A DNA stretch of 64,000 nt, taken from an uncultured Chloroflexia bacterium. Its GTDB lineage: Bacteria > Chloroflexota > Limnocylindria > Limnocylindrales > CSP1-4. Position 1 is the stretch's first letter. Each line of letters starts with the position of its first letter. A program made the position numbers and the translations under genes. The notes below the pieces were generated by a model. It ran no database searches and was not told the DNA's origin. It saw only the letters and a program-made list of their open reading frames with translations. This document shows, piece after piece, positions 4,649-25,869 of this stretch. The stretch spans positions 1-64,000 of the forward strand of contig CAVVJT010000008.1 of NCBI GenBank assembly GCA_963748625.1, given 5' to 3'.

Positions 4649-4675
4649 TTCAGGGCCACATCAGGGCAGACTCGC
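4649..4675 (+). promoter_or_regulatory. 11-bp-period box array A
   Basis: TTCAG 4649, ATCAG 4660, CTCGC 4671; GATCCT 10 nt later; ATG at 4699. Confidence 0.55.
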
Positions 4676-4698
4676 CTTGACTCCCGATCCTCAAGCTG

Positions 4699-4930
4699 AT
4701 GGCGTCGGAGCGACAAGCCCAGGTGTCGATCTTCGACCTCGGCTATTGGAGCGCCGATGCCCAGCAGTTGGGTCGGGCGCTCATACGGCGACGGCGTCCC
4801 GACGTCGGCGCCAATCCCGGCCACGGAGACGGTGCCCCTGGAGCTCGCTCCAGGGAAGCGCGATCTACGGGACGCGGTGCGCGCGGTGGACGGGACGGGC
4901 TTCCGACCTCGGCGTCCGCACGAGCACTGA
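4699..4930 (+). pseudogene. degenerate HMA-like paralog of 11772..12005
   Basis: VSIFDLGY...ANP-(frameshift)-TETVPLELAP...AVDGTGFRPRRP aligns with IPVYDLGC...VNPATETAYVEYDP...VGYRVGRP. Confidence 0.6.
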
Positions 4931-4995
4931 CTGTGCCACGGCCTTAGGCGAACGCCGATCGCGGCCCGTCAGCGTGCAACACGCCGCACGAATGT

Positions 4996-5022
4996 CTTAG
5001 CGTGCGCTCACGTGCCGCTCAT
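4996..5022 (+). promoter_or_regulatory. box array B
   Basis: CTTAG 4996, CTCAC 5007, CTCAT 5018, then N10 and CACTGT. Confidence 0.6.
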
Positions 5023-5259
5023 CTTCCGCGGACACTGTGGAACTCGCCACCCCCTTTCGTGAAGGCACGGCGATGACAGGCGGAACCGGATCTGCGACCC
5101 CGGGCACAGGGTCCACTGACTGGCTCGGGACGCCATGCGTCGCCTGTCCCGCTGCCTGCCCGATGACGCCCTCGCCTCCTCCCCGAAGGCGAGGGCGTCA
5201 CCTGTCCAGCTGCCGATCCGGGTGCCGATATGGGCGCGGTGGAACACAGTGGTCCACCT

Positions 5260-5297
5260 ATCAGCATTACTTCACGAACGGCTCATCTGGTCCTCAC
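5260..5297 (+). promoter_or_regulatory. box array C
   Basis: ATCAG 5260, TTCAC 5271, CTCAT 5282, CTCAC 5293, then N10 and TGGAAT. Confidence 0.65.
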
Positions 5298-5346
5298 CTG
5301 CCTCGGGTGGAATGACCTCACCCTCGACACGCAGTGGAGATCACCC

Positions 5347-5850
5347 ATGGCCCAGGCTACCGAAGGACGTGGAGACGCGGCGCGTGCGCCGTGGATCCAG
5401 CCCGGCGAGGCTCAAAGGCACCATGGCCGAGCCCGTGCGCCGCTGCACCTTACTCACGACGTGAGCCCGGCGCTCACGACGGTGGTCCTCGGCGAGACGC
5501 TCGTGGCCTCGAGGCCAGCGCACGCCCGCCTCACCGTGCTGGTGGTGGACGACGACGGTAGCCTGCTCGGAGCCATCGGCCGACGGCAGTTCCGCGCCGC
5601 GCTGGCGGACCCGGGCATCCGGGCGCGCGACATCATGGTCCCGGTCAGCCTGTTCTCGGTGACGCCCGGGGCAGCGCGCTCGCATGACCTGGAGCAGGCG
5701 ATCGCTCGCGACGGGTTTGCCCTCGTCGCGACGGCGGGCGGAGTCGCGGTGGTGGATGAGAACCAGGCCGAGCTCCCGCGGCGCCAGCTCGAAGGCCCGC
5801 TGCGCTATGCCCGCGGCCGGCCGGACCTGCGGACCGCCGGGCTCGACTGA
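5347..5850 (+). CDS. CBS-like domain protein
   Basis: VLVVDDDGSLLGAIG...ARDIMVP; GGAG RBS upstream. Confidence 0.5.
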   Translation: MAQATEGRGDAARAPWIQPGEAQRHHGRARAPLHLTHDVSPALTTVVLGETLVASRPAHARLTVLVVDDDGSLLGAIGRRQFRAALADPGIRARDIMVPVSLFSVTPGAARSHDLEQAIARDGFALVATAGGVAVVDENQAELPRRQLEGPLRYARGRPDLRTAGLD

Positions 5851-6196
5851 CGCCTGCTTTCCGCACCGCCGCAACCGAACCGCTCCTTGCAGTCGCAGCG
5901 GGCGGGCGGTACTGTCGCGGCCATGACCACCTCGACCTCCTCCATGGGGATGATGCTGATGCGCCGGCGGTCCCGTCGTGTCGAGGATGGGGTCCGAGGT
6001 TGTTCCCGCTAGTCAGACGACCAGCGTAGGGGACCCGGATCGAGGTCCCGGGGCCGCAGTCCACACACCGGACTGCGGCTTTGCTGTTTCTCGAGCACAC
6101 ACGACGGGTGGCCGCCGACGCCCCGCTCCACCGGCCAGCGCGCCGGGCCTGGACCTCCTCCACGCATCCGCATCAGCTCCCGGGAGTTTGCCCGTC

Positions 6197-6715
6197 ATGA
6201 CCGACTTCGCCTTCGCCCCCGTCGTCGCAGCCACTCGCGAGGCCCTCGCCGGCGCCCCGCCCTCCGTCTCTCTCGCCACGTTCCGAGTCGAGAGCCACCA
6301 GGTCGCAGGCCTCCGGAGTGCCGCCCGGATCCGTGACTTCGAGCTTGCCGTGGACGAGCCGCCTGCCCTGGGTGGCACCGACACGGCGCCCAACCCCGTC
6401 GAATACGCTCTTCTCGCCTTGGCTTCGTGCCAGGAGATCACGTATCGCCTTCACGCTGATCACCTGGGCATCCCGCTGGACCACGTCCGGGTCACCCTCG
6501 AGGGCGACGTCGACCTGCGCGGGTTCTTCGGGGTGGATGCGTCGGTACGACCCGGGTTCCGGGAGATCCGCGGCACGGTCGAGCTCGACAGCCCGGCCTC
6601 GATCGGCGATCTCGAGCGGCTGCGTGACCACGTCAACGCCCATTGCCCCGTCCTGGACATCGTGGTCAATGCAACACCGGCCAAACTCGAGCTGAGGATC
6701 GCGTCGCTCGCCTGA
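6197..6715 (+). CDS. OsmC family protein
   Basis: DEPPALGGTDTAPNPVEYALLALASC...HCPV. Confidence 0.85.
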   Translation: MTDFAFAPVVAATREALAGAPPSVSLATFRVESHQVAGLRSAARIRDFELAVDEPPALGGTDTAPNPVEYALLALASCQEITYRLHADHLGIPLDHVRVTLEGDVDLRGFFGVDASVRPGFREIRGTVELDSPASIGDLERLRDHVNAHCPVLDIVVNATPAKLELRIASLA

Positions 6716-6817: not shown

Positions 6818-7591
6818 TCAGCGCAGGCGCAGTGGGTTGACCAACCTTCCGTCCATCGTGACGCGCAGGTCGAGATGAGGTCCCGTGGAGAGACCGGTCG
6901 ATCCGACCGAGGCGATCCGCTGTCCTGCCGACACCCGTCGGCCGCGGCGGACGCGCACTTCCCGGTTGTGGTTGTAGGTGGAGGTCATGCCGCCGGGATG
7001 CCTGATCACGACGACATAGCCTCCACCGTTCCTCTTCCACCCCGCCCATACGACCCGGCCGGCCGCAATGGAACGCACCGGGGTGCCTGCGGGGGCAGCG
7101 ATGTCGATACCGGGATGACGCGCCGAGAACCTCGTGGTGAGCAGGCCGCGGACCGGCAGCGGCCACCGGTGGTCCATGGATGCGGCCGATCTCCGCCGCG
7201 AGGCGGCGGTCCGGACAGGCGGTTGCTCCTGACTGGGCCCCTCGGCGCGTTGCCCGCTGACAGGGGACCCGGTGCTCGCGGCGGGCTTGACCGCGGGAGA
7301 CGCACCTGCTCTGACTCTGGCTGGAGCAGATGAGGGAGGCGGTTGCGTTGCGCGAGGATTCGGCGACATGCCAGCAGGTCGACGGGGAGGACTGGCCGGT
7401 ACCGAGGTGGCTGCCGCACGGGACGGGAGCTCCAGCGGGAGGAATGCCTGCGGCTGCAGGGGAGCCGGCGTAGACGACGCGGTGGCAGCGACGAGCGGTG
7501 AGACGATGCCGGCGAGGGCGAGGCCTAGAACGAGCACGAGCACACCGCCAGCGATCGCGACAGCGCGGATGGGTCGGGATGTGTGGGTCAA
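6818..7591 (-). CDS. M23 family metallopeptidase with N-terminal signal/TM
   Basis: HPGIDIAA, YNHN, GSTGLSTGPHLD. Confidence 0.85.
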   Translation of the reverse strand: MTHTSRPIRAVAIAGGVLVLVLGLALAGIVSPLVAATASSTPAPLQPQAFLPLELPSRAAATSVPASPPRRPAGMSPNPRATQPPPSSAPARVRAGASPAVKPAASTGSPVSGQRAEGPSQEQPPVRTAASRRRSAASMDHRWPLPVRGLLTTRFSARHPGIDIAAPAGTPVRSIAAGRVVWAGWKRNGGGYVVVIRHPGGMTSTYNHNREVRVRRGRRVSAGQRIASVGSTGLSTGPHLDLRVTMDGRLVNPLRLR

Positions 7592-7667
7592 CCTCTAGAG
7601 CTCCGTGCGGATACTTGCGGGCACGCGCAGCGACGCTGCCCTTCGACTCGGAGTGTCTGCCCCGGAC

Positions 7668-7694
7668 CTGAGTGCCAGGTGAGGAGCCGATGAG
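7668..7694 (-). promoter_or_regulatory. box array D (M23 gene)
   Basis: On + strand CTGAG 7668, GTGAG 7679, ATGAG 7690; on - strand N10 then GACACT. Confidence 0.7.
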
Positions 7695-7714
7695 ACCATC
7701 AGGGACAAACGGTT

Positions 7715-7752
7715 CTCACCCCATCGCCACATGGCGCTCACCCGGGGCTCAG
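7715..7752 (+). promoter_or_regulatory. box array E
   Basis: CTCAC 7715, GCCAC 7726, CTCAC 7737, CTCAG 7748, N10, TGTACT, N6, ATG 7775. Confidence 0.7.
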
Positions 7753-7774
7753 GTGGGCAGGGTGTACTCGTGAC

Positions 7775-8344
7775 ATGGTTACGACCGCTGCACTCCTCCC
7801 AGGTCAATCTGCGCACAGCGACCGTCCGACCCTCCAGACCGGGCCGGAAGCCGGACCGATCCAGGTGCGCGCGGTGCACGTGTCAGCGGGCTACCACCCG
7901 AGCTCCCTCACCGTGAGCGCAGGCGTGCCCGTGCGGCTTGTCTTCCGGCGTGAAGGCGACGAGTCCTGTGAAGCCCGCGTGGTCTTCTCCGCCCCGCGGC
8001 TTGAGCGGCACCTCGCCGCAGACGGTGAGACGGTTGTTGATTTGCCGGCCCTGGACCGAGACGTGCGGTTCACGTGCGGGATGGGCCGCTATCGGGGACG
8101 GATCCGCGTCGTGTCCGCGCCGACCCGTCGCCAGATCTGGGCGCGTCGAGCGGCCGCGTCGGTCGGCGTTGCCACCGCGGCCGGTCTGGCGAGCCTCACG
8201 GCCGTTGCCGTGTGGGCAGGCTCAGCCCATGCTGGCCTCCTTGTGGGCCTCCTTGTTGCGCCCATGGCCTTCGCCCTCCTGCACGTAACGCAGGCGACCC
8301 GGCACCTTGTCCCAGACCGGTCACGAGGAGACGAGTGGAGATGA
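7775..8344 (+). CDS. cupredoxin-domain (CupA-like) membrane protein
   Basis: GYHPSSLTVSAGVPVRLVF...SC...RFTCGMG plus two C-terminal TM helices. Confidence 0.75.
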   Translation: MVTTAALLPGQSAHSDRPTLQTGPEAGPIQVRAVHVSAGYHPSSLTVSAGVPVRLVFRREGDESCEARVVFSAPRLERHLAADGETVVDLPALDRDVRFTCGMGRYRGRIRVVSAPTRRQIWARRAAASVGVATAAGLASLTAVAVWAGSAHAGLLVGLLVAPMAFALLHVTQATRHLVPDRSRGDEWR

Positions 8345-8774
8345 TGCATATGACGCGGTTGCACGCCGGAGCATTCTCCGGGTCAGCACCGTGGGCCCTA
8401 TGCACCTCGTTGGGCTCGGCGATCACGGAAGTGGGCGCCAAGCAGCGCGCAACCGGCGGGGTATCCCTGCGGATTGGACCTGAACAACCCATCCTCGGCC
8501 GCCGTCTAGGTGGCTGGTGACAGGATCCCTGCCAGCACGATGCGGCCGGCGGCGCCGGCGGCTGGGTGCCATCTGTCCCGTCCGGGCGTCGTCCATGAGT
8601 CTGGGCGCGAAGTCCGTCGAAGAACGCTTCGTCCTGGAGCCCTCGCACAGAGAGGGCAGATGAGCTCGCTCGGTCGGAGGTGGCTCAATCGGCTACAGGC
8701 TCTTCGCCGTGAGCATTCCCGACCTCAGCCAGGCGGGCAGGCAAGCCGCGCGCAAGCGTGCGGGACCATTCGTC

Positions 8775-9905
8775 CTATCCGCCTGCGATCGGCAAGAGCA
8801 CAGCCATGACGGTTCCACGTTCCGGGCCCTCGCTGGCCGCCTCAATTGACCCGTGCATCGCCTCCACGAGGGTGCGACTGATCGCGAGCCCTAGTCCGCT
8901 CCCGCCGGCGGCGCGGGATCGTGACGGGTCGGCGCGGTAGAAGCGCTCGAACGCATGGGCGAGCTGGTCGAGCGTCATTCCTGGACCATCGTCCGCCACG
9001 GTAAGGCGGACGAAGCCGGCGCCTGGTGAGGCGATCAGCCGGATTCGGCCGCCTTCCCGCCCGTGGGTGACCGCGTTTGCGACGAGGTTGTCGAGTACCT
9101 GCGCCGTTCGGGCGCGATCGGCACGGAACACCAGACCTGGCGGGGCGTCGACGATGATGGCACTCTCGCGTGCCGCGGCGGCCGGCCTCAGGCGTCTCGC
9201 CACGGCTGCGAGCTCCGTTGCGGCATCGAGCGCAACCGGCTCAAGGTACAGCTCTGAAGACTCCGCGCGCCAAAGGATGGCGAGGTCGTCGACGAGATGC
9301 TCCAGGCGCGCCGTCTGCTCGTCCAGGACGCGCCAAGTCTCGGGTCCCGGCGCGAAGATACCGGCCTCGAGCCCGGCCACGTAGCCTCGCACCGAGGCGA
9401 TCGGCGTCCGCAGCTCATGGGCGACGTCGCCGATCAGGTCCCGGCGCCGCTGCTCGTTGGCGGCGAGGCTCGCGGCCATGCCGTTGAAGGCACCTGCGAG
9501 CTCGCCGAGCTCGCCCGCGGCTGCGGGGACGGGCTCGGAGTAGTCGCCGCGGGCCACGCGCTTGCTTGCGGCCGCGAGGTCGTCGATCGGCCGCGCGATC
9601 CGAGTCGCGAGGAGCAGGGAGACGATCACTGCGACGACGACGGCGGCGGCAAAGCCGAGGAGGAGCGCCGTGCCCACAGCGTCGCCGAAGGCGGAGCGCA
9701 GGACCGGGTCCATCATCCCGCCGCTCATCATTCCCGTGCCGCCGCTCATCATCCCCCCAGAGCCCCGCATCCCCATCGCATCCTCGAATGCGCGCGGGGC
9801 TGCCAGCCACACCGCGGCCACGACGGCGGCGACCCCTGCGGTGGCCACGGCGAGGTTCGCGGCGAGCAGTCGCCAGCGCAGCCGGCCGAAGTCCGGTGTG
9901 CTCAC
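8775..9905 (-). CDS. sensor histidine kinase with Met-rich sensor loop (CopS/BaeS-like)
   Basis: HELRTP, HAMP, DDGPG, GSGLGL; extracellular MGMRGSGGMMSGGTGMMSGGMM. Confidence 0.9.
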   Translation of the reverse strand: MSTPDFGRLRWRLLAANLAVATAGVAAVVAAVWLAAPRAFEDAMGMRGSGGMMSGGTGMMSGGMMDPVLRSAFGDAVGTALLLGFAAAVVVAVIVSLLLATRIARPIDDLAAASKRVARGDYSEPVPAAAGELGELAGAFNGMAASLAANEQRRRDLIGDVAHELRTPIASVRGYVAGLEAGIFAPGPETWRVLDEQTARLEHLVDDLAILWRAESSELYLEPVALDAATELAAVARRLRPAAAARESAIIVDAPPGLVFRADRARTAQVLDNLVANAVTHGREGGRIRLIASPGAGFVRLTVADDGPGMTLDQLAHAFERFYRADPSRSRAAGGSGLGLAISRTLVEAMHGSIEAASEGPERGTVMAVLLPIAGG

Positions 9906-10612
9906 CGGTCCGCTGCCCGGAGCCGGTAGCCGACGCCCCGGATCGTCTCGACGAAGTGCGGGCTGCCGGGCTCGTCTCCCAGCTTGCGGCGGAGGTTGGC
10001 GACATGGACCTCGAGCACGTGGTCGTCGCCCGCGAAGTCGAGCCCCCAGGCGGCCTCGATGAGCTGCGCCCGGGTCAGCACGACGCCGGGGTCGCGGGCG
10101 AGCGCGACGAGGATCGCGAACTCGAGGGTCGTGAGGTCCACGGGAGCGCCCCCGACGCTGACCTCGTGGCGCGCCGGGTCGACCTCGAGGTCGACGGCGC
10201 GGAGGAGCCCGTCGCGCTCGGGCGGGGGCGCGGGACGCCGCCGACGCAGGAGCGCCTGGACCCGGGCCACGAGCTCGCCCGGGGAGAAGGGCTTCGTGAG
10301 GTAGTCGTCGCCGCCCACCTTGAGGCCGACGATCCGGTCGGTCTCCTCGGTCCGCGCGGTGAGGAAGATGACCAGCGGGTCGGCGAAGGCGCGGACCCGG
10401 AGGAGCACCTCGAGCCCGTCGAACCCCGGGAGCATGATGTCGAGGACGACGACGTCGGGCCCGAACGCGCGCACCGCCTCGACAGCGGCTGGGCCGTCGG
10501 CGGCCTCCGCCACCGTCATGCCCTCGCGCTCGAGGAAGCCCCGGACGACCGCGCGGATCGGCGGCTCGTCGTCGACGACGAGCACGCGCGCCGGACGGTC
10601 GGAGGAGGTCAT
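9902..10612 (-). CDS. OmpR-family response regulator (CopR-like)
   Basis: VVDDE, LDIMLP, DDYLTKPF, winged helix ending TIRGVGY. Confidence 0.92.
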   Translation of the reverse strand: MTSSDRPARVLVVDDEPPIRAVVRGFLEREGMTVAEAADGPAAVEAVRAFGPDVVVLDIMLPGFDGLEVLLRVRAFADPLVIFLTARTEETDRIVGLKVGGDDYLTKPFSPGELVARVQALLRRRRPAPPPERDGLLRAVDLEVDPARHEVSVGGAPVDLTTLEFAILVALARDPGVVLTRAQLIEAAWGLDFAGDDHVLEVHVANLRRKLGDEPGSPHFVETIRGVGYRLRAADR

Positions 10613-10632
10613 GGCGGAGATCGTAGGCCCAG

Positions 10633-11151
10633 TCAGCCCACGACGGTGATCGTGCCCCGCATCCCGGCCTCGTAGTGGCCGGCCACGTGGCAGGCGAAGG
10701 CGTAGGGTCCGCTGCCGTCGAAGGTGAAGGTGACCGACTTCGTCTGCATCATCCCGATGTCCGCGACCTCGGGCGTGCCCTCCGCGTCGGCCGCGACGGC
10801 GTCGGCCGGACCCACCATGAACTCGTGGACGAGGCCGCCCATCGAGGTGACCTCGAAGGTCACCGTCTCGCCCTTCGCCACCGTGATTGACGACGGCGAG
10901 AACGTGTAGCCGGGGCCGGCGACCACGCGGACGACCCGGGGGGCAGCGACCGTGCCGGCGACGAACCCGGCCTCGCCGGGTCCGGGTGCGGTGGCCGCAG
11001 CGCTGCCATAGCCGCCCATCATCCCGCCGGTGCCGGCGCCGCCCATCATGCCGGCGATGCCGGCACCTCCGTCGGCCACGGTGCCCGTCCCGATCAGGAG
11101 GGCGCCGCCGAGCACGAGCCCGGCACCCAGGAGCCCCAGCCGGCCGTTCAT
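10633..11151 (-). CDS. plastocyanin/azurin-type copper-binding protein
   Basis: Signal peptide, Met-rich linker, HEF...ACHVAGHYEAGM type-1 copper ligands. Confidence 0.88.
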   Translation of the reverse strand: MNGRLGLLGAGLVLGGALLIGTGTVADGGAGIAGMMGGAGTGGMMGGYGSAAATAPGPGEAGFVAGTVAAPRVVRVVAGPGYTFSPSSITVAKGETVTFEVTSMGGLVHEFMVGPADAVAADAEGTPEVADIGMMQTKSVTFTFDGSGPYAFACHVAGHYEAGMRGTITVVG

Positions 11152-11411
11152 CGCCCGGCCTCGAGAGTCTGTTTCGCCGCGAGGTACTCGTCCGCGGTCA
11201 TCTCGCCGCGGGCAAATCGGACCCGCAGTACCTCGAGGGCGTCATCGCCTGCGGGCCGCGGGGCCTGCCCGTGGGGAGCGTGCTGCGACTGGCCGACCTT
11301 GCCGATCGCCCAGGCGACCAGGACGATCAACCCGACCAGGAGGAGTGCCCCGCCGAGCATGCCCAGCCAGCCTCCCATGCCGAACCCGAGTCCGGCTCCG
11401 TATCCCATCAT
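11148..11411 (-). CDS. SHOCT-domain membrane protein
   Basis: MMGYG...TM...ALEVLRVRFARGEMTADEY; GAAGGAG RBS. Confidence 0.85.
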   Translation of the reverse strand: MMGYGAGLGFGMGGWLGMLGGALLLVGLIVLVAWAIGKVGQSQHAPHGQAPRPAGDDALEVLRVRFARGEMTADEYLAAKQTLEAGR

Positions 11412-11493
11412 CTTCGTGTCTCCTTCTCGTTCGCCCCGCTTGGGGCTCGATGTGAACGATGGACCTCGAGGCTCAGGCTGGCCGCTCGACCGT

Positions 11494-11513
11494 CTCAAGA
11501 TCGGCTCAAGATC
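11494..11513. promoter_or_regulatory. perfect direct repeat CTCAAGATC-N2-CTCAAGATC, candidate CopR-type box
   Basis: Lies upstream of the SHOCT-cupredoxin-RR-HK operon. Confidence 0.6.
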
Positions 11514-11619
11514 TGCTGCCCGGGCCTGTCGCGATCGGGAACGCGACCGTGTTGTGGCCGACTGCTCAGCGGAGGTTCTGGCGCAGGTTCCGGACGGTTG
11601 CGCGCGACAAGGCACTGGC

Positions 11620-11750
11620 GGGTCGCATGCAGCTCCTTCACCTTGGCGGTCTGGCCGGGCGGCACCTCCGCGAGCACTGGATCGAGGCCGACCTCGGCCT
11701 CGATCCGAGCGGTGGTGGCCTGGTTGTCGCCGGTCAACGCGGAGCAGGTT
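11620..11750 (-). pseudogene. P1B-type ATPase remnant
   Basis: LTGDNQATTARIEAEVGLDPVLAEVPPGQTAKVKELH is the TGDN region of heavy-metal ATPases. Confidence 0.7.
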
Positions 11751-11771
11751 GCGGCGGGCGCCGGGCACGGC

Positions 11772-12005
11772 TCACGGCTTGACTGGACGGCCGACTCGAT
11801 ACCCAACCTTCTCGATGACCCGCGCCAGCGTCCACGCGTCGGTCTCCGCTGGGTCGTACTCGACATAGGCCGTCTCTGTGGCGGGGTTCACGTACACGCT
11901 GACGACTCCGTCGGTCGCGGCGAGCTGCCGCTCGATCGTCGACGCGCCCGCTCCACCACAGCCGAGGTCGTACACCGGGATCCGAAGTCCGCGCCTGATG
12001 TCCAT
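11772..12005 (-). CDS. HMA-domain protein with a single Cys
   Basis: DLGCGGAGASTIERQL...GVVSVYVNPATETAYVEYDP...IEKVGY. Confidence 0.8.
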   Translation of the reverse strand: MDIRRGLRIPVYDLGCGGAGASTIERQLAATDGVVSVYVNPATETAYVEYDPAETDAWTLARVIEKVGYRVGRPVKP

Positions 12006-12027
12006 GCCGCGAGCGTCGCGTGACCCG

Positions 12028-12054
12028 CTGAGGCATACCTGAGCGAATCATGAG
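12028..12054 (-). promoter_or_regulatory. box array G
   Basis: CTGAG 12028, CTGAG 12039, ATGAG 12050; on - strand N10, GACGCT, N6, ATG 12005. Confidence 0.75.
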
Positions 12055-12109
12055 AGTTGCTCAACTCCGCGGCCCTCGCGTCGGACTGGCGCCCACAGTC
12101 CGCGTAGCA

Positions 12110-12136
12110 CTCAGGTTCGCCTCAGCAATGCCTAAG
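12110..12136 (+). promoter_or_regulatory. box array H (CopD gene)
   Basis: CTCAG 12110, CTCAG 12121, CTAAG 12132, N10, CACCGT. Confidence 0.7.
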
Positions 12137-12225
12137 GTGGATCGCCCACCGTCGCGTGGGCGGCGCGCCGTTCGGGCAACGGGCTCTTGCAGCGCCGGCC
12201 GCAGACCAGCCACCGTTGGGAGATC

Positions 12226-12705: not shown

Positions 12706-12885
12706 CCCAGCTTCAGCCCGCCGGTCACGTGGTGCCAATGGGTCGACCACCACGTCCGCCTGACGTGCGAGGTCTTCCGCCCCAATGTCAGCGGCCGCCG
12801 GACCATGTCCGCGGCCACCATCGCGAACCCCGTGTCGGCGCTCTGTGCCATGGCCTTGGGCGTTTCCTCGTAACCCGACCCATGT

Positions 12886-12912
12886 CTCATGCCGTCCTCA
12901 GCCGGCGCTCAG
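12886..12912 (+). promoter_or_regulatory. box array I
   Basis: CTCAT 12886, CTCAG 12897, CTCAG 12908, N10, AAGAGT, N6, ATG 12935. Confidence 0.75.
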
Positions 12913-12934
12913 CCTCGCCGGTAAGAGTCACCGC

Positions 12935-14924: not shown

Positions 14925-14951
14925 CTCACCGGATGCTCACGTGCGCTTCAG
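14925..14951 (+). promoter_or_regulatory. box array J (DoxX gene)
   Basis: CTCAC 14925, CTCAC 14936, TTCAG 14947, N10, CAGCAT. Confidence 0.7.
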
Positions 14952-15027
14952 GCGCGGCGCGCAGCATGCTGGTCGCCGTGACCGAGCAGCGCGGATGCGC
15001 GGGCCCGGAGTACCCCGCGGCGGAAAG

Positions 15028-15873: not shown

Positions 15874-15911
15874 CTCAGGACCCGCTCAGCGAGGCCTCAG
15901 TGGCGGCTCAC
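15874..15911 (+). promoter_or_regulatory. box array K (four copies)
   Basis: CTCAG 15874, 15885, 15896, CTCAC 15907, N10, GATCCT, N6, ATG 15934. Confidence 0.8.
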
Positions 15912-15933
15912 GAGAAGGTCCGATCCTTCCGCA

Positions 15934-19215: not shown

Positions 19216-19336
19216 GGTCACCGTGCCCGCTCGGACAGAAGGTTTCGCGGCATCGGTAGGGGAGTCTCCATTCAGTACGCCAGTGCGGTACGAGTGCAAG
19301 TGCGGTACGAGTGCCAGTCCAGTGGACGCCGGCCGG

Positions 19337-19374
19337 CTGAATCCCCGGTGAGCCATCAATGAGGCGCCGGTGAG
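19337..19374 (-). promoter_or_regulatory. box array M (four copies)
   Basis: CTGAA 19337, GTGAG 19348, ATGAG 19359, GTGAG 19370. Confidence 0.7.
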
Positions 19375-19586
19375 CATTTGCGCGAGTCGAGCTCGGTGGG
19401 CCCAGTGGGCGGGATCCGTTGGCAGCGGTCCCGCCCACTGGTCGGCCTGTGCAAGAGGCCGTTTCGACGCTGGCCCGGGGGGAGCGGGCCGCCGTCGTCC
19501 AGGTCAGCGGGGTGACACTGCGATCCGCAGTACGCCCCGCCGCCGACGCCTCCAGGGTGAGGCATGTACAAGCGTCATCGTCGCGG

Positions 19587-19613
19587 CTGAGGAGAGCCTG
19601 AGCCCACCATGAG
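19587..19613 (-). promoter_or_regulatory. box array L
   Basis: CTGAG 19587, CTGAG 19598, ATGAG 19609; on - strand N10, GACGCT, N5, ATG 19565. Confidence 0.7.
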
Positions 19614-19620
19614 ACTTCTG

Positions 19621-20283
19621 CTAGGCCGTCGCGAGCCGCCGTGCGATCAGACGGGCGACTGTCCAGACCAACCCGGCGAGAAGCAGGCCGAGGCCGAAGA
19701 CGGCCATCACCGACTCCGTCCAGAAGGCGACCGGGAAGAGCTGTGTGAGGCGTTCCACACGGGCGTCGAACGTGAAGTTCCCCTCGGGGAAGAAGACGAG
19801 GTGGAACGCCAGCCAGGCCTGGTCGAAGAACAGGGCGAAGACGACCCCGGCCACGATCGCCACAATGGCGGCGCCGATCGCCGCTTGGCCCAGGCGGCGC
19901 CACCACCAGGCCTCTCGCCGGTAGCGGACAGCAAGGATGGCCAGCGTCATCGCCGCCACGGCCACCAGCGCGGCGAACGCACGGATGACCAAGTACACGT
20001 CGCGCATGTGACCACGCTCAGCTGCGTCGAGCACGATCTGGCCCCCGGACGACACTGCGAAATCGGGAGGCCCGAGCGTGACGTCGGCAATGAGGGACTC
20101 GGTGATCCGCGCAACTTCCGCTGCAGGCCACGCTGTGATCGCGGGCACGTCTGCACGCCGTTGGGCAGGGAGCACCCACAGGGAATTGAAGAGCAGCGCG
20201 AGGCTCAGGCCGGCGATCACGATTGGGACCGACGCCGCCGTGAGCCAGCGGACGGACCTCGGCGGGCTCGATGCAGTGCTCAT
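19621..20283 (-). CDS. DUF1461-like integral membrane protein (Lit-like)
   Basis: ERGHMRDV...FFDQAWLAFHLVFFPEGNFTFD...LTQLFP. Confidence 0.75.
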   Translation of the reverse strand: MSTASSPPRSVRWLTAASVPIVIAGLSLALLFNSLWVLPAQRRADVPAITAWPAAEVARITESLIADVTLGPPDFAVSSGGQIVLDAAERGHMRDVYLVIRAFAALVAVAAMTLAILAVRYRREAWWWRRLGQAAIGAAIVAIVAGVVFALFFDQAWLAFHLVFFPEGNFTFDARVERLTQLFPVAFWTESVMAVFGLGLLLAGLVWTVARLIARRLATA

Positions 20284-20305
20284 GCCTCGTTCATGCAACG
20301 CTCAG
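20279..20305 (+). promoter_or_regulatory. box array N
   Basis: CTCAT 20279, TTCAT 20290, CTCAG 20301, N10, CAGGCT. Confidence 0.7.
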
Positions 20306-20365
20306 CGAAGGACGCCAGGCTTCTCGCGCCGGAGACATCTGGCACAAGACCGGAGACCTTCGAAC

Positions 20366-20638
20366 ATGCACCTGACCGAACTCGCAGTCATCGACTCTGC
20401 CGGGCAGCCGTCGGCCGCCTGCGCGACGTGCGGCTCCCATGTTGCGGCCGGGAGCGGGGTGACGGCCATCTTCCACGGCCGCACGCTGCGCTTCCGATGC
20501 GCGGGCTGCTACTCGCGGTTCGTGCTGGACGCCGACCACGCCCCCGAGGGCGTCTCGCGCGACTGCTGCAACGGCGATGCCTCCCACGCCGCGCCCAGCG
20601 CCTCGTGCGCCGTGCCCTACTCGGAGTGGTGCATCTGA
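20366..20638 (+). CDS. Cys-rich TRASH/YHS-like small protein
   Basis: CATCG...FHGRTLRFRCAGC...DCC...SC...EWCI; GGAG RBS. Confidence 0.65.
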   Translation: MHLTELAVIDSAGQPSAACATCGSHVAAGSGVTAIFHGRTLRFRCAGCYSRFVLDADHAPEGVSRDCCNGDASHAAPSASCAVPYSEWCI

Positions 20639-20664
20639 CGGATCACGTGCGGCGCCTGCACCCG

Positions 20665-21909
20665 TCACGCGGGTGAGCCCCGCGAGGAGCGTCGCCAGGA
20701 GAAGGTGCGCGTCTCGGCGCGCAGGCGTAGCAGGGCCTGCCGCGCGATCACGTAGGCGAGGACGGACCCGACGAACACGAGGCCGGTCCCCTGCCCCATG
20801 CGCGTCATGACCAGGGTGGCTGTGAGCGCGGCGAGCCCGAGACCGACGGCGGACTCGATGAGCTGGGCCGGGATCCGCCGAGCGCCTACCCGACGGTCCG
20901 ACGACCAGATTCCTGCGCCCGTCGTGATCCGGCCTGCGCAGCAACCCGTGAGGAAGCAGCCGATGCGCCCGACGGCGATGGCCAGGAAGAGCGCCGGCGC
21001 GACGGCATCGAGGTATCCCGCCACCGGGACCGCGAGGAGGAGTGCCAGGACGACAGCGACAACGGGCGCCGTCACGAGGAAGCCGTCGACCGACCAGCCC
21101 TCCCGCAGCGTCGCGACGCTGGGGCCCCTGAGGGCCATGTACCACGCCTTGGCGCCGGCCATCCCGATCGCGAGCGCGAGCACAGACGCCGCGATCGCGG
21201 GCCCGACGGGGACGCCGTGGTGTGCCAGGAACAAGGGCTGCACGAGCAATGACCCCACGATGGCGACGGCGGCAGCCACGAGGAAGCTGCCGGCGACCAC
21301 GCCGGGCGCGGCGGCCAGCGGGGCCGTGACCGCCCATCGGGTCGTTGCGGGTCCGCCAACTCCGACCATCGCCCAGCGGCGCCAGGACCATCCGACGGCG
21401 GGGAGCGCAAGAGGGTTCGCCGCGTGAGCGCGCTCGGGGCCAACGACCTCTGCCGTCACGTCCCACTCGCCCTGCGCGATCCCGTAGATCCATGATGTGG
21501 TGGACATCGGCCGGCCGCCCGGGACCACGCCGGCGATCATCTCGGTACGCATGAACCCATCCGCCGGCGTCAGTCTCCCGACCACGCCCAGGCGGCGTCC
21601 CGTGAGCCGGATGGTCGCCGTGTAGGGTGTGCCTCCTGACGGTCCGGGCTCGAACCTGTGCGAAACCACCAGGGCCGCCGGTTCCGCGGGCAGGGACTCG
21701 TCGTGTCCGGGCACGACCGGCGTGGCCTCTGGCACCCCGAGCGGGGGCTGCCCACCGGCGGCACTCGGGCCCAGCGATCGGGCTTCAGCCCCATGCGGTC
21801 CAGCGCGGCCGGCCGCTGGGAGCGCGGGCGCCGCCGTCGGGCGGTTGGCGGAGGGCCGCGCGCGGCCTGCGGCTCGGCGTTTGCTGCTCACCGGTGCCGG
21901 CCCGCCCAT
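20665..21909 (-). CDS. Lgt-family-like protein, copy 2
   Basis: Close paralog of 13453..14724 (GAKAWY, EGWSVDGF, GCFLTGCCAGR). Confidence 0.75.
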   Translation of the reverse strand: MGGPAPVSSKRRAAGRARPSANRPTAAPALPAAGRAGPHGAEARSLGPSAAGGQPPLGVPEATPVVPGHDESLPAEPAALVVSHRFEPGPSGGTPYTATIRLTGRRLGVVGRLTPADGFMRTEMIAGVVPGGRPMSTTSWIYGIAQGEWDVTAEVVGPERAHAANPLALPAVGWSWRRWAMVGVGGPATTRWAVTAPLAAAPGVVAGSFLVAAAVAIVGSLLVQPLFLAHHGVPVGPAIAASVLALAIGMAGAKAWYMALRGPSVATLREGWSVDGFLVTAPVVAVVLALLLAVPVAGYLDAVAPALFLAIAVGRIGCFLTGCCAGRITTGAGIWSSDRRVGARRIPAQLIESAVGLGLAALTATLVMTRMGQGTGLVFVGSVLAYVIARQALLRLRAETRTFSWRRSSRGSPA

Positions 21910-21924
21910 GCGTCGGACGACGCC

Positions 21925-22152
21925 CTATGCATCATGGCCGCCGCTGCCGACGGCGTGGTTGTGGGCAACCGGCTCTGATGCCGACCAGCGCACAGGATCG
22001 TCGCGAAACATGGACTCGCAGGCCGGGTCGCAGAACCAGTATGCGAGGCCGTCGTAGACCACCCTGGATGCCGCCGCGGGGTCTACCCGCATTCCGCAGA
22101 CGGGATCGGTTACGAGGGCGGATGTGTCGTGCGCGAGGTCGGGTGTGTGCAT
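21925..22152 (-). CDS. YHS domain protein, copy 2
   Basis: DPVCGMRVDP...YDGLAYWFCDPAC; AAGGAG RBS. Confidence 0.85.
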   Translation of the reverse strand: MHTPDLAHDTSALVTDPVCGMRVDPAAASRVVYDGLAYWFCDPACESMFRDDPVRWSASEPVAHNHAVGSGGHDA

Positions 22153-22281
22153 CGGCTTGCTCCTTGGGTGAGTCATGACTGGGTGGCGTGACCTGTCTGG
22201 TGGACCCCACCGCATCCAGAGCCTCACGTGAGGATCCTGACAAGCGCGACGCGGTCCATGCCCCGATGCTTGGCCAGGTGC

Positions 22282-22308
22282 GTGAGAGCCAGGTGAGCGG
22301 CCGGTGAG
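22282..22308 (-). promoter_or_regulatory. box array O
   Basis: GTGAG at 22282, 22293, 22304; on - strand N10 then AAGCAT. Confidence 0.75.
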
Positions 22309-22327: not shown

Positions 22328-23734
22328 TCAGACCCGGCGGGCCGGGATGGCGATCGTCGCCCGGGTTCCGCCCTCAGGCCGTGGTGACAGGGAGATCGTG
22401 GCGCCATGTGCCTCGACGATCCAGTGCGCGATCGCGAGCCCGAGCCCCGTGCCCGACGGTCGGATCTGGCGTGCCCGACGGCCGCGATAGAGGCGCTCGA
22501 AGAGATGCGCAGCATCCTCGTCATCAATCCCGATGCCGGAATCATCGACGATCACCACTGCCGAGGCGTCGCGGGCCACCAGGCGTGCGGTGACGGAGCC
22601 GCCGGCTGGTGTATAGCGCGCCGCGTTGTCCAGGATGATCCCGAAGAGCTCACGGAGGCGGTCTGCGTCGCCTTCGACGACCACCGGCTCGACCGCCGCA
22701 ACGGACATCCGCACGTGCGTCGAGGCCTGCCGCTGGCGCCGGACGCAGTCGACGAGGAGCGCATCGAGCTCCACCGGCCCGAACACGAGCCGGTCGCCGG
22801 ACTCGGCGCGGGCGAGTGAGAGGAGGTCGGCGATGAGGCGGCCCATCCGCTCTGCCTCCTCCCGGGCATCGCCGAGGATGGCAGCCCGATCTACCGGGTC
22901 GATGCCCGGTCGCGTGGCCAGATCGAGGTTCGCTCGGATCACCGTCAGCGGCGTCCTGAGCTGGTGCGACGCATCGCCGAGGAATCGCTGGAGCGCGAGG
23001 TGGCTCTCCTCCAGTGCCTCCAGCATTTCGTTGAATGCCAGCACGAGCTCCCCGACCTCATCGGGTGTATCGGGACCTACGACGCGTGCGCCGAAGTCGC
23101 CCGAGAGGGCGATCGCCCGCGCCGTCTCGGTAACGTCGGCGACGGGGGTGAGGGCGCGGCGGGCGAGCAGCAAGCCCGCGACGAGCGCGAGGAGGGCAAC
23201 GGCAGCCCCACCGACGACGAGCGCGAGCCGCACCGTGTCGAGCAGCGATCGCAGGGGCCGGGTGCTGTCCGCCCACACCACGTATCCGATGGTGGTGCTA
23301 TTCGCCGTACTCACGGCCTGGACGGTCATCCGCAGCGTATCGCCGGTCACCGGCTGCTCGTGGATGCGGTGCTCGTGCCGGTCGGCGGTCGCGATGTCAT
23401 CGGGTGATACCGGCAGACCGGCCTCCCCGACGGGCGCCGAGTCGGCGATCTCGCGGCCCGAGGCATCGAGCACGAGGACACGGCCTCCCGTGGAGGCGAG
23501 CTGCGACACGAGCCGCTCGCTTGGCGCCAGGCGGCCTGCAGCGTCAACGTCCTGGGCCAGCGCCCCGGCGGCGTGCTCGGCGTTCGCGACGAGCGAATTG
23601 TCGAATGACGCCTCGAGCTCGCGGCCCATCACGAGGTATACGCCGCCCCCGAACACCGCGAGCGCCGCGACCAGCAGGCCCGTGTAGAGCAGCGCGAGCC
23701 GGAGCCGGATGCTCCGCGCAGGCAGGCGGCTCAC
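22328..23734 (-). CDS. sensor histidine kinase (MprB-like)
   Basis: Two [27 protein letters not shown]. Confidence 0.9.
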
Positions 23735-24414
23735 GCGTCCTTGAGCACGTAGCCCGCGCCGCGGATCGTGTGGATCAGGCGCGGCTCGCCATCCGCCTCG
23801 AGCTTGCCCCGCAGGTACCGGACGTAGACCTCCAGCACGTTCAATTCGCCCTCGAAGTCGTACGACCACACGTGGTCCATGATCACGTCGCGGGTGAGCA
23901 CCTTGCGCGGGTGGCGCATGAACAGCAGGAGGAGGTTGTACTCGGTGGTCGTGAGGTCGATCCGTCGCGGGCCGCGGCGCGCTTCCCGGGCATCCACATC
24001 AAACTCGAGGTCAGCAAAGCGGAGCACCTCCCCGGACGGCGACGTCCGCCGCCGGAGCAGCGCGTGGACGCGCGCGAGCAGCTCCTCGAAGTTGAACGGC
24101 TTGACCAGGTAGTCGTCGGCCCCGTTCTCGAGGCCTTCGACGCGGTCCTTCACCTCGTCGCGGGCCGTAAGCATCAGGATGGCCACCTGGTCCCCTCCAG
24201 CACGAAGCCGGCGGGTGACCTCGAGACCGTCGATGCCCGGCATCATCACGTCGAGGATCACAAGTTCCGGCAGGTGCTCCCGGGCCTTCTCTAGCCCATC
24301 CTCACCGGAAGTCGCCTCGATGACTCGATAGCCCTCATAGGCCAGACCCCGGCGGACCACGGTCCTGATCTTGGGGTCGTCATCGACGACCAGGATGCGC
24401 GTGGGATCGGCCAT
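23731..24414 (-). CDS. OmpR-family response regulator, MprA-like
   Basis: [50 protein letters not shown]. Confidence 0.9.
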
Positions 24415-24538
24415 GGAGCCGCCGCCTCCAGTGGATGGTCCTCGGCCGGGTGGCGGGCCGGTGGCGCAATTATCGCGCCGCTGGAAGCCGAGGGACGCCA
24501 CCGCCCAAGAGAACTGAGCGCATCATGCGCCCCTGGAC

Positions 24539-24565
24539 CTGAGAACAGCATGAGTTGTAGATGAG
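24539..24565 (-). promoter_or_regulatory. box array P (autoregulatory candidate)
   Basis: CTGAG 24539, ATGAG 24550, ATGAG 24561 upstream of the response regulator. Confidence 0.7.
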
Positions 24566-24672
24566 TGGAGGCCGCATCTCCGGTACAGGAGCGAACCTGA
24601 GACGCACCTGGGTTGCTGACGCCGTTTGGCGCTGACGCGGGCAAGACTGCGGTCAGTGCAGCCGGTGGCCGA

Positions 24673-24981
24673 TCAATGGCAGCCGCCACGCCGCTGGTCA
24701 TCCGGGCTCGTGGCGGCGGTCGGATCCTGCGCCACCCCCGACTCCGTCTCGCGGGCGTCCGGGGATGATCCGGCATGACCTCCGTGCATGCCGTGCCCGA
24801 ACAGGTGCATTCCGATCATGCCGCCGAAGAGTCCGATCGACAGGAGCGACGAGGGCGTGACGACGCCGAGGTAGAGAAGGACGCCAGCTCCCACCGCGAG
24901 CAAGAGCGCGGGCAGAACCCAGCGGGGACGGCGGCCGGTGCGGCCCACGGTGTGGTCGGTGTGGTCGGTGTGCGCGGCCAT
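24673..24981 (-). CDS. DUF2933-like His-rich small membrane protein
   Basis: Two TM, MHLFGHGMHGGH, C-terminal GGCH; GGAGG RBS. Confidence 0.65.
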   Translation of the reverse strand: MAAHTDHTDHTVGRTGRRPRWVLPALLLAVGAGVLLYLGVVTPSSLLSIGLFGGMIGMHLFGHGMHGGHAGSSPDARETESGVAQDPTAATSPDDQRRGGCH

Positions 24982-25053
24982 GCGGCAACCTCCAGTTGCG
25001 GGGTGATCAGGTGATCTGGCGACGTGTCCGGACAGAGCACCCAGGGTTTGGCG

Positions 25054-25695
25054 TCAGGGTTCGGAGCTCGCGGGCGCTCGGGCGGAGATCGACGGCACGG
25101 CCCACTCCGAGACCTCGCCGTCATCACGAGGGGCGAACGCGCGGGAACTGGCACGAAGGATCGCGAGCGCGATTGCGAGACTCGCACCAGCTGACACCGT
25201 GAAGGTCATCAGGACGGGATCGTCCGCCACCAGGGCACTGGCAACTCCAAGCCACATGACCAGCAACGGCGCCCATATGGGCACATCCGCGGCGGTCGGG
25301 GGCAAGCGGCGTCGCGGTGGATGAGTCCGACGGATCAGGCGACCGCGATACTGCCCCCTACCGCACGTGAAGCGGATCTCCCCGGCCGCGGCCGCAGGCA
25401 GATCCACGATGGTGTCCGACTGTGGAGCCAGGTGGCGGACAAGGCGGGGCTCGGAGAACACCACGCGATCGGAGCAGTCCTGCCGGTCGCGTCGGAGGAA
25501 GACGAGCCGGATCGGCACGCCCGCGCGAGCCTCGACCACCGAAGGATGGTAGCCGTTCGCGACCAGGACCTCGAAGACCTGCAGGCCCGAGGACTCGACG
25601 AACCTCGCCTGCGGGTTGTCCGTGCTGACACGCTGCGCGACGGCCCTGAGCCGGATGCGAGCAGGCCGATGAACGAGACGCCCCACGATGTCCAT
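25054..25695 (-). CDS. cupredoxin-domain membrane protein, paralog of 7775..8344
   Basis: GYHPSVVEARAGVPIRLVF...DC...RFTCGRG plus C-terminal TM pair. Confidence 0.7.
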   Translation of the reverse strand: MDIVGRLVHRPARIRLRAVAQRVSTDNPQARFVESSGLQVFEVLVANGYHPSVVEARAGVPIRLVFLRRDRQDCSDRVVFSEPRLVRHLAPQSDTIVDLPAAAAGEIRFTCGRGQYRGRLIRRTHPPRRRLPPTAADVPIWAPLLVMWLGVASALVADDPVLMTFTVSAGASLAIALAILRASSRAFAPRDDGEVSEWAVPSISARAPASSEP

Positions 25696-25717
25696 GACGA
25701 GAGGGTCGAGGCACCAC

Positions 25718-25755
25718 CTGAAGGGCGGATGAGCGGGGGCTGACGCCGGCCTGAG
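25718..25755 (-). promoter_or_regulatory. box array Q (four copies)
   Basis: CTGAA 25718, ATGAG 25729, CTGAC 25740, CTGAG 25751; on - strand N10, GACCCT, N6, ATG 25695. Confidence 0.75.
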
Positions 25756-25842
25756 AAGCGCCAGCCGCCGCCCGAACCTGGGCCGCCGTGGCCGTGCGGT
25801 GTCGCCGCGGGGTTCCCCGCAGCCGGTTCGTGGTCCGGAGTT

Positions 25843-25869
25843 CTCATGCCCCACTCACCCGGGACTCAG
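25843..25869 (+). promoter_or_regulatory. box array R (CAP gene)
   Basis: CTCAT 25843, CTCAC 25854, CTCAG 25865, N10, GAGCCT. Confidence 0.75.

Follow-up and report, generated by a model that had tools for sequence, protein, structure and literature searches.

We analysed the first 64,000 nucleotides (nt) of a contig (C8) from an uncultured Chloroflexota bacterium; this whole stretch, C8:1-64000, is called the window, and its genome (G000) comprises 4,626,308 bases in 10 contigs. The left part of the window is a putative mobile island with copper-type cargo, in which boxes with the core CTCA recur head to tail with an 11-base-pair (bp) period. A preliminary description of the window had listed about 18 promoters with such arrays and had proposed that they join most transcription units of the island in one regulon. 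The listed sites and the genes or open reading frames (ORFs) behind them are given below, with scores in bits and protein lengths in amino acids (aa).

4649..4691, plus strand: degenerate boxes TTCA/ATCA/CTCG, a correctly spaced GATCCT and an ATG at 4699 (+50), 8.5 bits; possibly a decayed promoter
4996..5038, plus strand: array CTTAG/CTCAC/CTCAT with -10-like GACACT, 37.2 bits; before small ORFs at 5037/5073
5271..5313, plus strand: weak array TTCA/CTCA/CTCA with TGGAAT, 14.3 bits; before a 167-aa ORF, 5347-5850
5978-6715, plus strand: OsmC-like gene (Pfam OsmC), after ORF 5347-5850
7652..7694, minus strand: array CTCAT/CTCAC/CTCAG with a -10, 37.9 bits; M23 peptidase gene 6818-7591 (Pfam Peptidase_M23)
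7715..7768, plus strand: four-position array (second box degenerate) with a -10, 13.0 bits
7775-8344, plus strand: cupredoxin gene (Pfam Cupredoxin_1), predicted leaderless ATG 7775, 27 nt past the C of the last box
12012..12054, minus strand: array CTCAT/CTCAG/CTCAG with GACGCT, 32.3 bits; HMA gene 11772-12005 (Pfam HMA), predicted leaderless ATG 12005 at +49
12110..12152, plus strand: array CTCAG/CTCAG/CTAAG with a -10, 20.7 bits; before a CopD-like gene
Start 12187 or 12226, to 12705, plus strand: CopD-like gene (Pfam CopD, below cut-off)
12886..12928, plus strand: array CTCAT/CTCAG/CTCAG with AAGAGT, 35.3 bits; predicted leaderless ATG 12935 of a disrupted HMA gene
12935-14724, plus strand: disrupted HMA gene, running into YHS ORF 12979-13389 and followed by LGT-like gene 13453-14724 (Pfam YHS, LGT)
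14925..14967, plus strand: array CTCAC/CTCAC/TTCAG with CAGCAT, 28.5 bits; before a DoxX gene at about 15037-15576 (Pfam DoxX)
15874..15927, plus strand: four-box array with GATCCT, 21.5 bits; two overlapping exact matches
15934-16278, plus strand: CsoR-like gene (Pfam Trns_repr_metal), predicted leaderless ATG 15934
To 16754, plus strand: ORF with a cupredoxin domain (Cupredoxin_1), then ORF 16688-17614, both behind the CsoR-like gene
17772, plus strand: listed site with acceptable boxes and no -10 element at the fixed distance, 0.7 bits
19321..19374, minus strand: four-position array, 23.4 bits; upstream of a 391-aa ORF, 18124-19299, of no Pfam family
19571..19613, minus strand: array CTCAT/CTCAG/CTCAG with GACGCT, 30.7 bits; 69-aa ORF 19356-19565, ATG 19565 at +48
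20279..20321, plus strand: array CTCAT/TTCAT/CTCAG with CAGGCT, 30.8 bits; before a TRASH-like 90-aa ORF
20366-20638, plus strand: TRASH-like ORF between two minus-strand genes (Pfam TRASH E=2e-4, below cut-off)
22266..22308, minus strand: array of three CTCAC boxes with AAGCAT, 33.8 bits; ATG 22259
19621-22176, minus strand: YHS 21925-22176, LGT-like 20665-21909 and Lit 19621-20298, behind array 22308
24523..24565, minus strand: array CTCAT/CTCAT/CTCAG with -10 CATGAT one base farther, 16.8 bits; predicted promoter of the RR2-HK2 operon
25702..25755, minus strand: four-position array with GACCCT, 28.1 bits; cupredoxin gene 25054-25695 (Cupredoxin_1), predicted leaderless ATG 25695
25843..25885, plus strand: array CTCAT/CTCAC/CTCAG with GAGCCT, 36.9 bits; before a CAP-domain gene, 25950-26546 (Pfam CAP)

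HMA, YHS/TRASH, cupredoxin, CopD and CsoR-like proteins dominate the set of genes behind the arrays. The cargo of the island as assigned with Pfam/NCBIfam comprises HMA, YHS/TRASH, four cupredoxins, CopD-like, CsoR-like, DoxX, LGT-like, Lit, M23 and CAP proteins.

The arrays appeared to be nearly confined to the island. The exact pattern CTCA-N7-CTCA-N7-CTCA matched 10 times in the window and not once in any of 100 dinucleotide-preserving shuffles, and the same 10 matches, all within C8:7669-25868, are the only ones in the whole genome. When up to one mismatch was allowed in the 12 core bases, 18 matches fell within C8:1-30000, against 6 in all the rest of the genome (4.6 Mb). Variation of the period from 6 to 16 left matches in the island at period 11 only (10 exact, 18 with up to one mismatch), with none at the other periods. 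Outside the island, periods divisible by three gave a coding-repeat background of 26-32 matches (up to one mismatch), and period 11 gave no exact matches and 6 with one mismatch.

To guard against circularity, the position matrix used for scoring was trained on 45 non-redundant arrays of other genomes, with G000 excluded. Applied to G000, it gave 15 matches above 20 bits, 14 of them in the island and one at C2:244096(-), while the reversed genome gave none above 15 bits. Sixteen of the 18 listed sites scored 12.9-37.9 bits, as compared with a best score of 5.6 in positions 30001-64000 of the window. Thus, the claimed enrichment of phased CTCA arrays in the island over the rest of the genome and over shuffled DNA was borne out, and the number of array promoters came to 16 rather than about 18, as site 4649 is weak and site 17772 gained no support. 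No site in the island turned up beyond those already listed. The starts originally listed for minus-strand arrays are the low-coordinate ends of those arrays. The arrays point along the sense strand of the downstream gene, and divergent genes carry them back to back, as had been described; three such pairs were seen (7694-/7715+, 12054-/12110+ and 25755-/25843+). An equal density of arrays inside genes and a random orientation were also looked for, and neither was seen.

The statement that no arrays exist outside the island proved nearly correct, with one good and one weak exception on contig C2. The good site, C2:244096(-) (L103 8097-; 27.5 bits), precedes a gene whose 184-aa product belongs to no known family. 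The weak one, C2:248149(-) (L103 12150-; 16.8 bits), has an ATG at +49 and lies before a kinase-regulator pair. The regulator encoded there is 46% identical to RR2, the island regulator described below, yet its recognition helix is RR2-like (NVVEVYIRYLR). It may be a chromosomal paralogue of RR2 with overlapping specificity.

To describe the promoters, we aligned on their boxes 61 non-redundant arrays from the G000 island and 11 related loci (8 in genomes of the same genus and 3 in further records). The arrays had been sought by their three CTCA cores alone, so that all other columns of this alignment are independent information. An A stood at +38 from the C of the first box (16 nt past the C of the last box) in 47/61 arrays and a T at +42 (20 nt past it) in 55/61, and the columns flanking these two held almost no information. 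We read them as the two best-conserved bases, -11 and -7, of a weak -10 hexamer of bacterial type (nAnnnT at -12..-7); the individual hexamers are GACGCT, CACCGT, AAGCAT and similar. No TTGACA-like columns were found across the 61 aligned arrays, indicating the lack of a -35 element, whose space is taken by box 2 and its flank. On this numbering the first bases of the three boxes lie at about -49, -38 and -27, with an occasional fourth at -60. Such a fourth upstream box (up to one mismatch) was present in 14/61 arrays, compared with 4/61 at either control offset, -22 or +33, and with about 3/61 expected by chance on a rough, composition-based estimate. Boxes 1 and 3 favour CTCAG and box 2 favours CTCA(C/T)C(T), and the heptamer CTCAGNN ends 8 bp ahead of the -10 hexamer. 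The boxes are conserved, whereas the spacers are unrelated among arrays.

The start codons fell into the same register. An ATG was located exactly at +49, that is 27 nt past the C of the last box, in 12/61 arrays, and a GTG in 3/61 more, while no other offset had more than 4 ATG. A start codon 7 nt after the T of the -10 hexamer implies a leaderless messenger RNA and fixes the start site; about a quarter of the promoters would accordingly be leaderless, with the start codon at +1. The predicted cases in G000 are those at 7775, 12005, 12935, 15934, 19565, 22259 and 25695. Taken together, these regularities identify the arrays as putative parts of promoters, namely operators.

Some genes behind the arrays deserve a remark. 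The HMA gene starting at 12935 carries an out-of-frame internal deletion relative to an intact 77-aa orthologue in a related locus (L011) and runs into the YHS ORF, and array 22308(-) is followed only by an 11-codon remnant (MDRVALVRILT-stop, 22227-22259) ahead of the YHS gene; both could be due to gene decay or to assembly error. The long ORF 15684-16754(+) overlaps the CsoR-like gene in another frame, and because its cupredoxin domain is limited to the C-terminal third, the cupredoxin gene probably starts after 16278.

The island encodes two pairs of a response regulator (RR) and a histidine kinase (HK). One of them, RR2-HK2, lies behind an array of its own:

23731..24414, minus strand: RR2, OmpR/PhoB-type response regulator (Pfam Response_reg and Trans_reg_C)
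22328..23869, minus strand: HK2, sensor histidine kinase (Pfam HAMP/HisKA/HATPase_c), true start probably downstream of 23869

The best NCBIfam family of RR2 was TIGR01387 (cztR_silR_copR), at 241.4 bits against a cut-off of 279.2, and the top match of HK2 was TIGR01386 (CztS/SilS/CopS) over residues 52-508, at 194.2 bits against a cut-off of 292.55. HK2 aligns end to end with this heavy-metal sensor kinase model, although below its threshold; its periplasmic domain is larger than the outer loop of the other island kinase and includes DRHEHRIHE within a stretch rich in His. The closest solved chain to RR2 is Mycobacterium tuberculosis PhoP (E 5e-61), with PrrA near behind (E 1.5e-59). The CseB family (NF041733), which we take to be the Streptomyces counterpart of mycobacterial MprA, gave 191.0 bits with RR2 and 195.8 bits with RR1, the second island regulator, against a cut-off of 350. 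Because RR2 and HK2 stay below the heavy-metal cut-offs, as RR1 and RR2 do below those of CseB and MtrA, we left RR2 unclassified, as a putative PhoP/CopR-like regulator.

Several lines of evidence connect RR2 with the arrays. Among 70 genomes of the genus, 11 have RR2 orthologues (83-100% identity, up to 3 copies per genome, next best at most 54%), and the closest relatives of RR2 (85-91% identical) belong to metagenome-assembled genomes of Chloroflexi or Candidatus Limnocylindrales, which places the host there and not among the actinobacteria that its GC content alone would suggest. Of the 149 exact arrays found in the genus, 105 are in the 11 genomes with RR2, on the contigs that carry it, and the remaining 44 come from the other 59 genomes, with no more than 5 each; the reversed pattern gave 6 matches across all 70. 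Many of these 44 are runs of near-identical GCTCAYCSSSG units, different in character from the island arrays. Such runs, of 4-6 units of 11 bp, occur mostly in genus genomes without RR2 (L019 6063-6099, L020 7077-7140, L021 9099-9147, L022 7616-7653 and G042:C96:32092-32183).

Of the 11 related copies of RR2 that could be evaluated, 10 have an array scoring above 15 bits at most 170 nt upstream of the gene; in the eleventh it lies 1.2 kb upstream, and one further copy is interrupted by a contig end. In 16 related loci, 5 of which had not been used in matrix training and some of which come from near-identical islands and are hence not independent, the proteins encoded within 700 nt downstream of arrays were homologues of RR2 (10), YHS (8), HMA (7), the TRASH-like ORF 20366-20638 (7), cupredoxins (6), the CsoR-like protein (5), CopD (4), DoxX (2), M23 (2) and the protein of ORF 18124 (2). 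For 37/90 arrays of these loci, no homologue of any G000 island protein was found downstream. RR2 is the likely binder of the CTCA arrays.

The pairing extends beyond the genus, to other classes of the Chloroflexota and to one genome of the Bacillales. In a scan of 401 genomes drawn across the Chloroflexota, a stricter pattern that included the A and T of the -10 gave 93 matches in 52 genomes, and its reversed control gave none in all 401; a few of the 93 are plain tandem repeats, and the 52 include one genome (G128) on which no claim rests. Ten genomes with at least two matches were probed with RR2, and 9 of them (G195, G177, G333, G204, G309, G264, G211, G386 and G116) have an RR2-like gene (52-86% identical) on an array-bearing contig, with an array 72-631 nt upstream of the regulator gene in G195, G333, G204, G211 and G116.

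Two more distant cases keep the same geometry. In the genome of locus L028, with a GC content of about 52%, contig C62 encodes two regulators 55% identical to RR2, and contigs C62 and C55 carry four-box CCT[CA]AG arrays at the same spacing to TATAAA, TACAAT, TTAAAT, TAAAGT, TATCCT or TTTAAT; no array was found in the flanks of L028 itself. Among the genes behind these arrays is one for a YHS-HMA-HMA protein, truncated where the contig stops; others encode an HMA protein, a cytochrome b and a DUF2933 protein. In a Bacillales genome (L027; 42% GC, regulator 61% identical to RR2), CTTAG/CTCAT/CTCAG/CTCAC with TATGAT at the same spacing precedes an operon ending in the regulator and a kinase. The recognition-helix signature N-[VIM]-[LV]-E-V-Y-[VI]-x-x-L-R was present in 12/13 array-linked regulators. 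On this sampling, the element is patchy across the phylum and is not private to the island.

The second pair, RR1-HK1, lies in a genus-wide chromosomal operon with a different repeat ahead of it:

8775..11411, minus strand: operon of SHOCT 11148-11411, cupredoxin 10633-11151, RR1 9902-10612 and HK1 8775-9905
11456..11511, minus strand: predicted promoter of the RR1 operon, TCTTGAG-N4-TCTTGAG with CATCGT, as read from the sequence; true SHOCT start 11411

RR1 has the domains Response_reg and Trans_reg_C, adjoins the HAMP/HisKA/HATPase_c kinase HK1 and is 48% identical to RR2. Its relatives form a graded series from 83% down to 56% identity in many genus genomes without arrays. In 8 genomes without RR2, the RR1-like gene lies in the same SHOCT-cupredoxin-RR1-HK1 operon, and in 6 of these (L115, L117-L121) a TCTTGAG-N4-TCTTGAG-like repeat, with an 11-bp period and followed by CATCGT, is located upstream of it. 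G000 has one exact match to TCTTGAGNNNNTCTTGAG, at 11511-11494(-), ahead of the RR1 operon. This repeat is probably the operator of RR1, and because the RR1 operon carries its own, different repeat, we assigned the CTCA arrays to RR2. The recognition helix of RR1 (HVLEVHVANLR) differs from the array-linked signature at three positions. RR1 and the adjoining cupredoxin gene (9902-11151-) have a host-like third-codon GC content of 0.93-0.96; an RR1 operon already resident in the host may have been captured by the island or have been the nucleus of its formation. The extracytoplasmic loop of HK1, at residues about 40-66 (MGMRGSGGMMSGGTGMMSGGMM), is short and rich in Met and resembles a Cu(I)/Ag(I) ligand set. 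With this loop and a box of its own, RR1-HK1 would be a second copper circuit within the island, and the older of the two.

Two features mark the right end of the island:

27368..28915, plus strand: large serine recombinase (Pfam Resolvase)
28851..28926, minus strand: transfer RNA (tRNA) gene for Arg(CCG), inside which the recombinase ORF ends (ARAGORN; Rfam tRNA, 72 bits)

This tRNA gene is the likely integration site and right boundary. It was also the only Rfam match at gathering thresholds in positions 1-32000 of the window. Third-codon GC is 0.78-0.86 in most island genes, against 0.87-0.98 in genes beyond 29 kb, so that a recombinase by a tRNA gene, a composition unlike that of the host and the patchy distribution of RR2 (11/70 genomes) all mark the segment as an integrative island. 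A second copy of the tRNA end was not found elsewhere on C8; the contig starts at base 1 of the window, and the left end of the island may be missing. Just outside the tRNA boundary, an 839-aa protein encoded at 29017-31536(-) has PMP-repeat and NosD-like (periplasmic copper-binding, beta-helix) matches. Parts of positions 7000-16500 of the window are listed for metagenome runs of 11 studies, of freshwater sediment, freshwater, sediment, soil and rhizosphere; 9 of those runs contain at least half of the sampled words of this segment (best 0.81, a run that may be the assembly source). No RNA dataset was listed as containing it.

The island has the hallmarks of an OmpR/PhoB-type regulon: it encodes a regulator with a receiver and a winged helix, its direct repeats have a 10-11 bp period and stand at a fixed distance from the -10 without a -35, and the operator occurs at the regulator's own operon. 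We consider it probable that the arrays are operators of activator-dependent promoters, carried by almost all transcription units of the island and under the control of the island's own RR2-HK2 pair, responding to copper or a related metal or envelope signal through tandem-dimer activation. On a signal of this kind, HK2 would phosphorylate RR2, and phosphorylated RR2 would bind the boxes head to tail as tandem dimers, the site at -60 being weak or cooperative in most promoters. RR2 would thereby occupy the -35 position, recruit RNA polymerase in place of the contact between sigma region 4 and the -35, and activate all array units, its own operon included. We propose PhoP-like activation because the promoters lack a -35 element, have a minimal -10 element and keep their boxes locked in register with it. 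The binding by RR2, activation rather than repression, the stoichiometry and the signal are all parts of a model read from DNA. The signal in particular, copper or a related stress, is suggested by the cargo and by the end-to-end, sub-threshold match of HK2. The proposed mobile copper-related regulon, in which an OmpR-family response regulator would bind a cis-element common to most island transcription units, passed all the computational tests that were run. We favour it because the arrays stand in a fixed register with the -10 and the start codons, co-occur with RR2 and include one before RR2 itself, and because the cargo is of copper type and a recombinase lies at a tRNA end.

Several observations weigh against this model. 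Co-occurrence alone cannot separate RR2 from other genes that always travel with the island, and since RR2 and HK2 fall under the NCBIfam heavy-metal cut-offs, the copper signal is deduced from the cargo. In most arrays the number of good boxes is odd, namely three, with a fourth only in the 14/61 mentioned above; the solved PhoP complexes described in a passage of PMC11825685 contain 2, 4 or 6 protomers. The promoter of RR2 itself in G000 scores low (16.8 bits) and has its -10 shifted by one base. Beyond the genus, 1 of the 10 probed genomes (G158) had no RR2-like gene on a contig with an exact array. Of the 76 loci that surround regulators with 42-61% identity to RR2, many of them Streptomyces records at 42-49%, only L027 had an array in its flanks (control 0). 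Two loci with regulators 60-61% identical to RR2 (L031 and L033) had no array in their flanks, though L033 has the helix signature.

The arrays could instead be bound by RR1, or by both island regulators, with the Met-rich HK1 as the copper input. RR1 is likewise of OmpR type and about half identical to RR2, the loop of HK1 resembles a Cu(I) ligand set, and array 12054(-), upstream of the HMA gene, lies 360 nt ahead of the RR1 operon, so that read-through could couple the two systems; a link of this kind between the RR1 and RR2 circuits is speculation. However, many genomes of the genus contain RR1-like genes (69-83% identity) but only 0-2 arrays, the RR1-type operon carries its own TCTTGAG repeat in 6 of 8 such genomes and in G000 alike, and the RR1 helix departs from the array-linked signature, which together make the assignment to RR1 unlikely. 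It is also improbable, in our judgement, that RR2 acts as a repressor that covers -49 to -23, blocks polymerase and permits induction by its release. The boxes do overlap the region that polymerase must contact, and the abstract of PMC11825685 notes that OmpR-family proteins, including M. tuberculosis PhoP, can repress. Still, promoters with no -35 and only an A at -11 and a T at -7 are unlikely to be active unaided, the strict distance from box to -10 is needed for activation by contact and not for occlusion alone, and an array at the promoter of RR2 itself fits the usual positive autoregulation of two-component systems.

A different factor, such as an unannotated DNA-binding protein of the island, a host factor or an alternative sigma factor, might recognise the arrays, with RR2 merely travelling along. 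Several island ORFs have no family assignment, and co-occurrence with the arrays is common to all island genes. We nevertheless regard this as quite improbable, as no sigma factor or other DNA-binding family besides the CsoR-like protein and the response regulators was found among the 62 + 16 ORFs scanned, the pairing of arrays with RR2-like genes persists in distant genomes with different other cargo, and head-to-tail 11-bp repeats fit the binding of winged-helix response regulators described in a passage of PMC3353115. Finally, the repeats might play no part in transcription and be structural or mobile-element features, for example iterons, sites of a recombinase or a repeat element that spreads. 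Phased direct repeats make up iterons as well, and the island is mobile, with a serine recombinase, but the sites are dispersed, one per transcription unit, always face the downstream gene in a fixed register with the -10 and the start codons, and have conserved boxes with unrelated spacers, and we give this explanation hardly any credence.

Regulons of this kind, in which an OmpR/PhoB-family protein acts on phased direct repeats, are well known. In E. coli PhoB with its pho box and in Streptomyces PhoP, 11-bp direct-repeat units, in numbers that differ between promoters, take the place of the -35 and keep a constant distance to the -10; box sequence, signal and lineage differ from those of the island. 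SARP activators (AfsR, ActII-ORF4) use heptamer repeats with an 11-bp period that end 8 bp before the -10, as the island heptamers do. The island regulators, in contrast, are response regulators with receiver domains, and no protein of BTAD/SARP type was found among the scanned ORFs. Explanations by a SARP-type protein or a sigma factor were dropped, as no such protein was present among the island ORFs scanned.

M. tuberculosis PhoP binds 7-bp direct repeats at an 11-bp period, according to a passage of PMC9645806, and PMC11825685 describes one to three tandem dimers on such boxes, in which the DNA-binding domain farthest downstream covers the -35 and displaces sigma region 4. RR2 and PhoP have similar recognition helices (the first listed of the compared pair is NVVESYVSYLRRK), with about half of the residues identical in the alignment. 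PhoP sites quoted in the literature, such as CCTCAGC...GCGCAGC, resemble the CTCAG box of the island. In contrast to PhoP, with its 2, 4 or 6 sites of TCACAGC-type repeats, the island has the core CTCA(G/Y) in mostly three strong boxes; the PhoP regulon is global and chromosomal, whereas that of the island is a compact mobile copper regulon, if our model is correct. Passages of PMC3353115 describe the Corynebacterium glutamicum CopRS system as copper-responsive and as activating neighbouring copper genes and its own operon through an 11-bp-period direct repeat (TGAAGATTTnnTGAAGATTT). That CopR has a single site serving two divergent promoters, as opposed to about 16 promoters with three boxes each on the island, and its box sequence is unrelated. 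The preliminary description had pointed to MprA, which like CseB is an OmpR-type regulator of envelope stress, and to a TCTCAG-type direct repeat as the mycobacterial MprA box. The motif of C. glutamicum MprA is given as TKTTAAGAAM in a passage of PMC12113857. Our literature search turned up no CTCA-type box, as judged from titles, abstracts and passages, which is not proof of absence in print. Within the literature searched, the new elements are the box, its assignment to a Chloroflexota regulator clade, and a single mobile island so densely set with uniform promoters, many of them with leaderless starts.

These results do not change the general view of how response regulators act. Chloroflexota of the Limnocylindrales type are mostly uncultured, and for such a bacterium sequence alone gave a promoter model at base resolution, a named candidate regulator and a separate box for a second regulator. 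About 16 putatively co-regulated units are listed, several genes of unknown function among them, and the search pattern finds the same module in 52/401 sampled Chloroflexota genomes. The pair of promoter and regulator is compact and putatively metal-responsive, and could be of use in high-GC hosts. A wider and more doubtful reading, which we put forward tentatively, is that the island is a self-contained portable expression system, which supplies its own PhoP-like regulator and sets nearly all of its cargo behind one standard promoter without need of a -35 and often of a leader, that its code of CT[CA]A boxes with an 11-bp period, 10 nt before the -10, is an old and so far undescribed regulatory dialect spread across Chloroflexota classes and into the Bacillota, and that its promoters use a three-site stoichiometry, for example a dimer and one protomer. 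If so, the predominance of three sites would represent a stoichiometry unseen in solved activation complexes of the OmpR family, and the expression of the island after transfer would depend on its own sensor and not on promoter recognition by the host.

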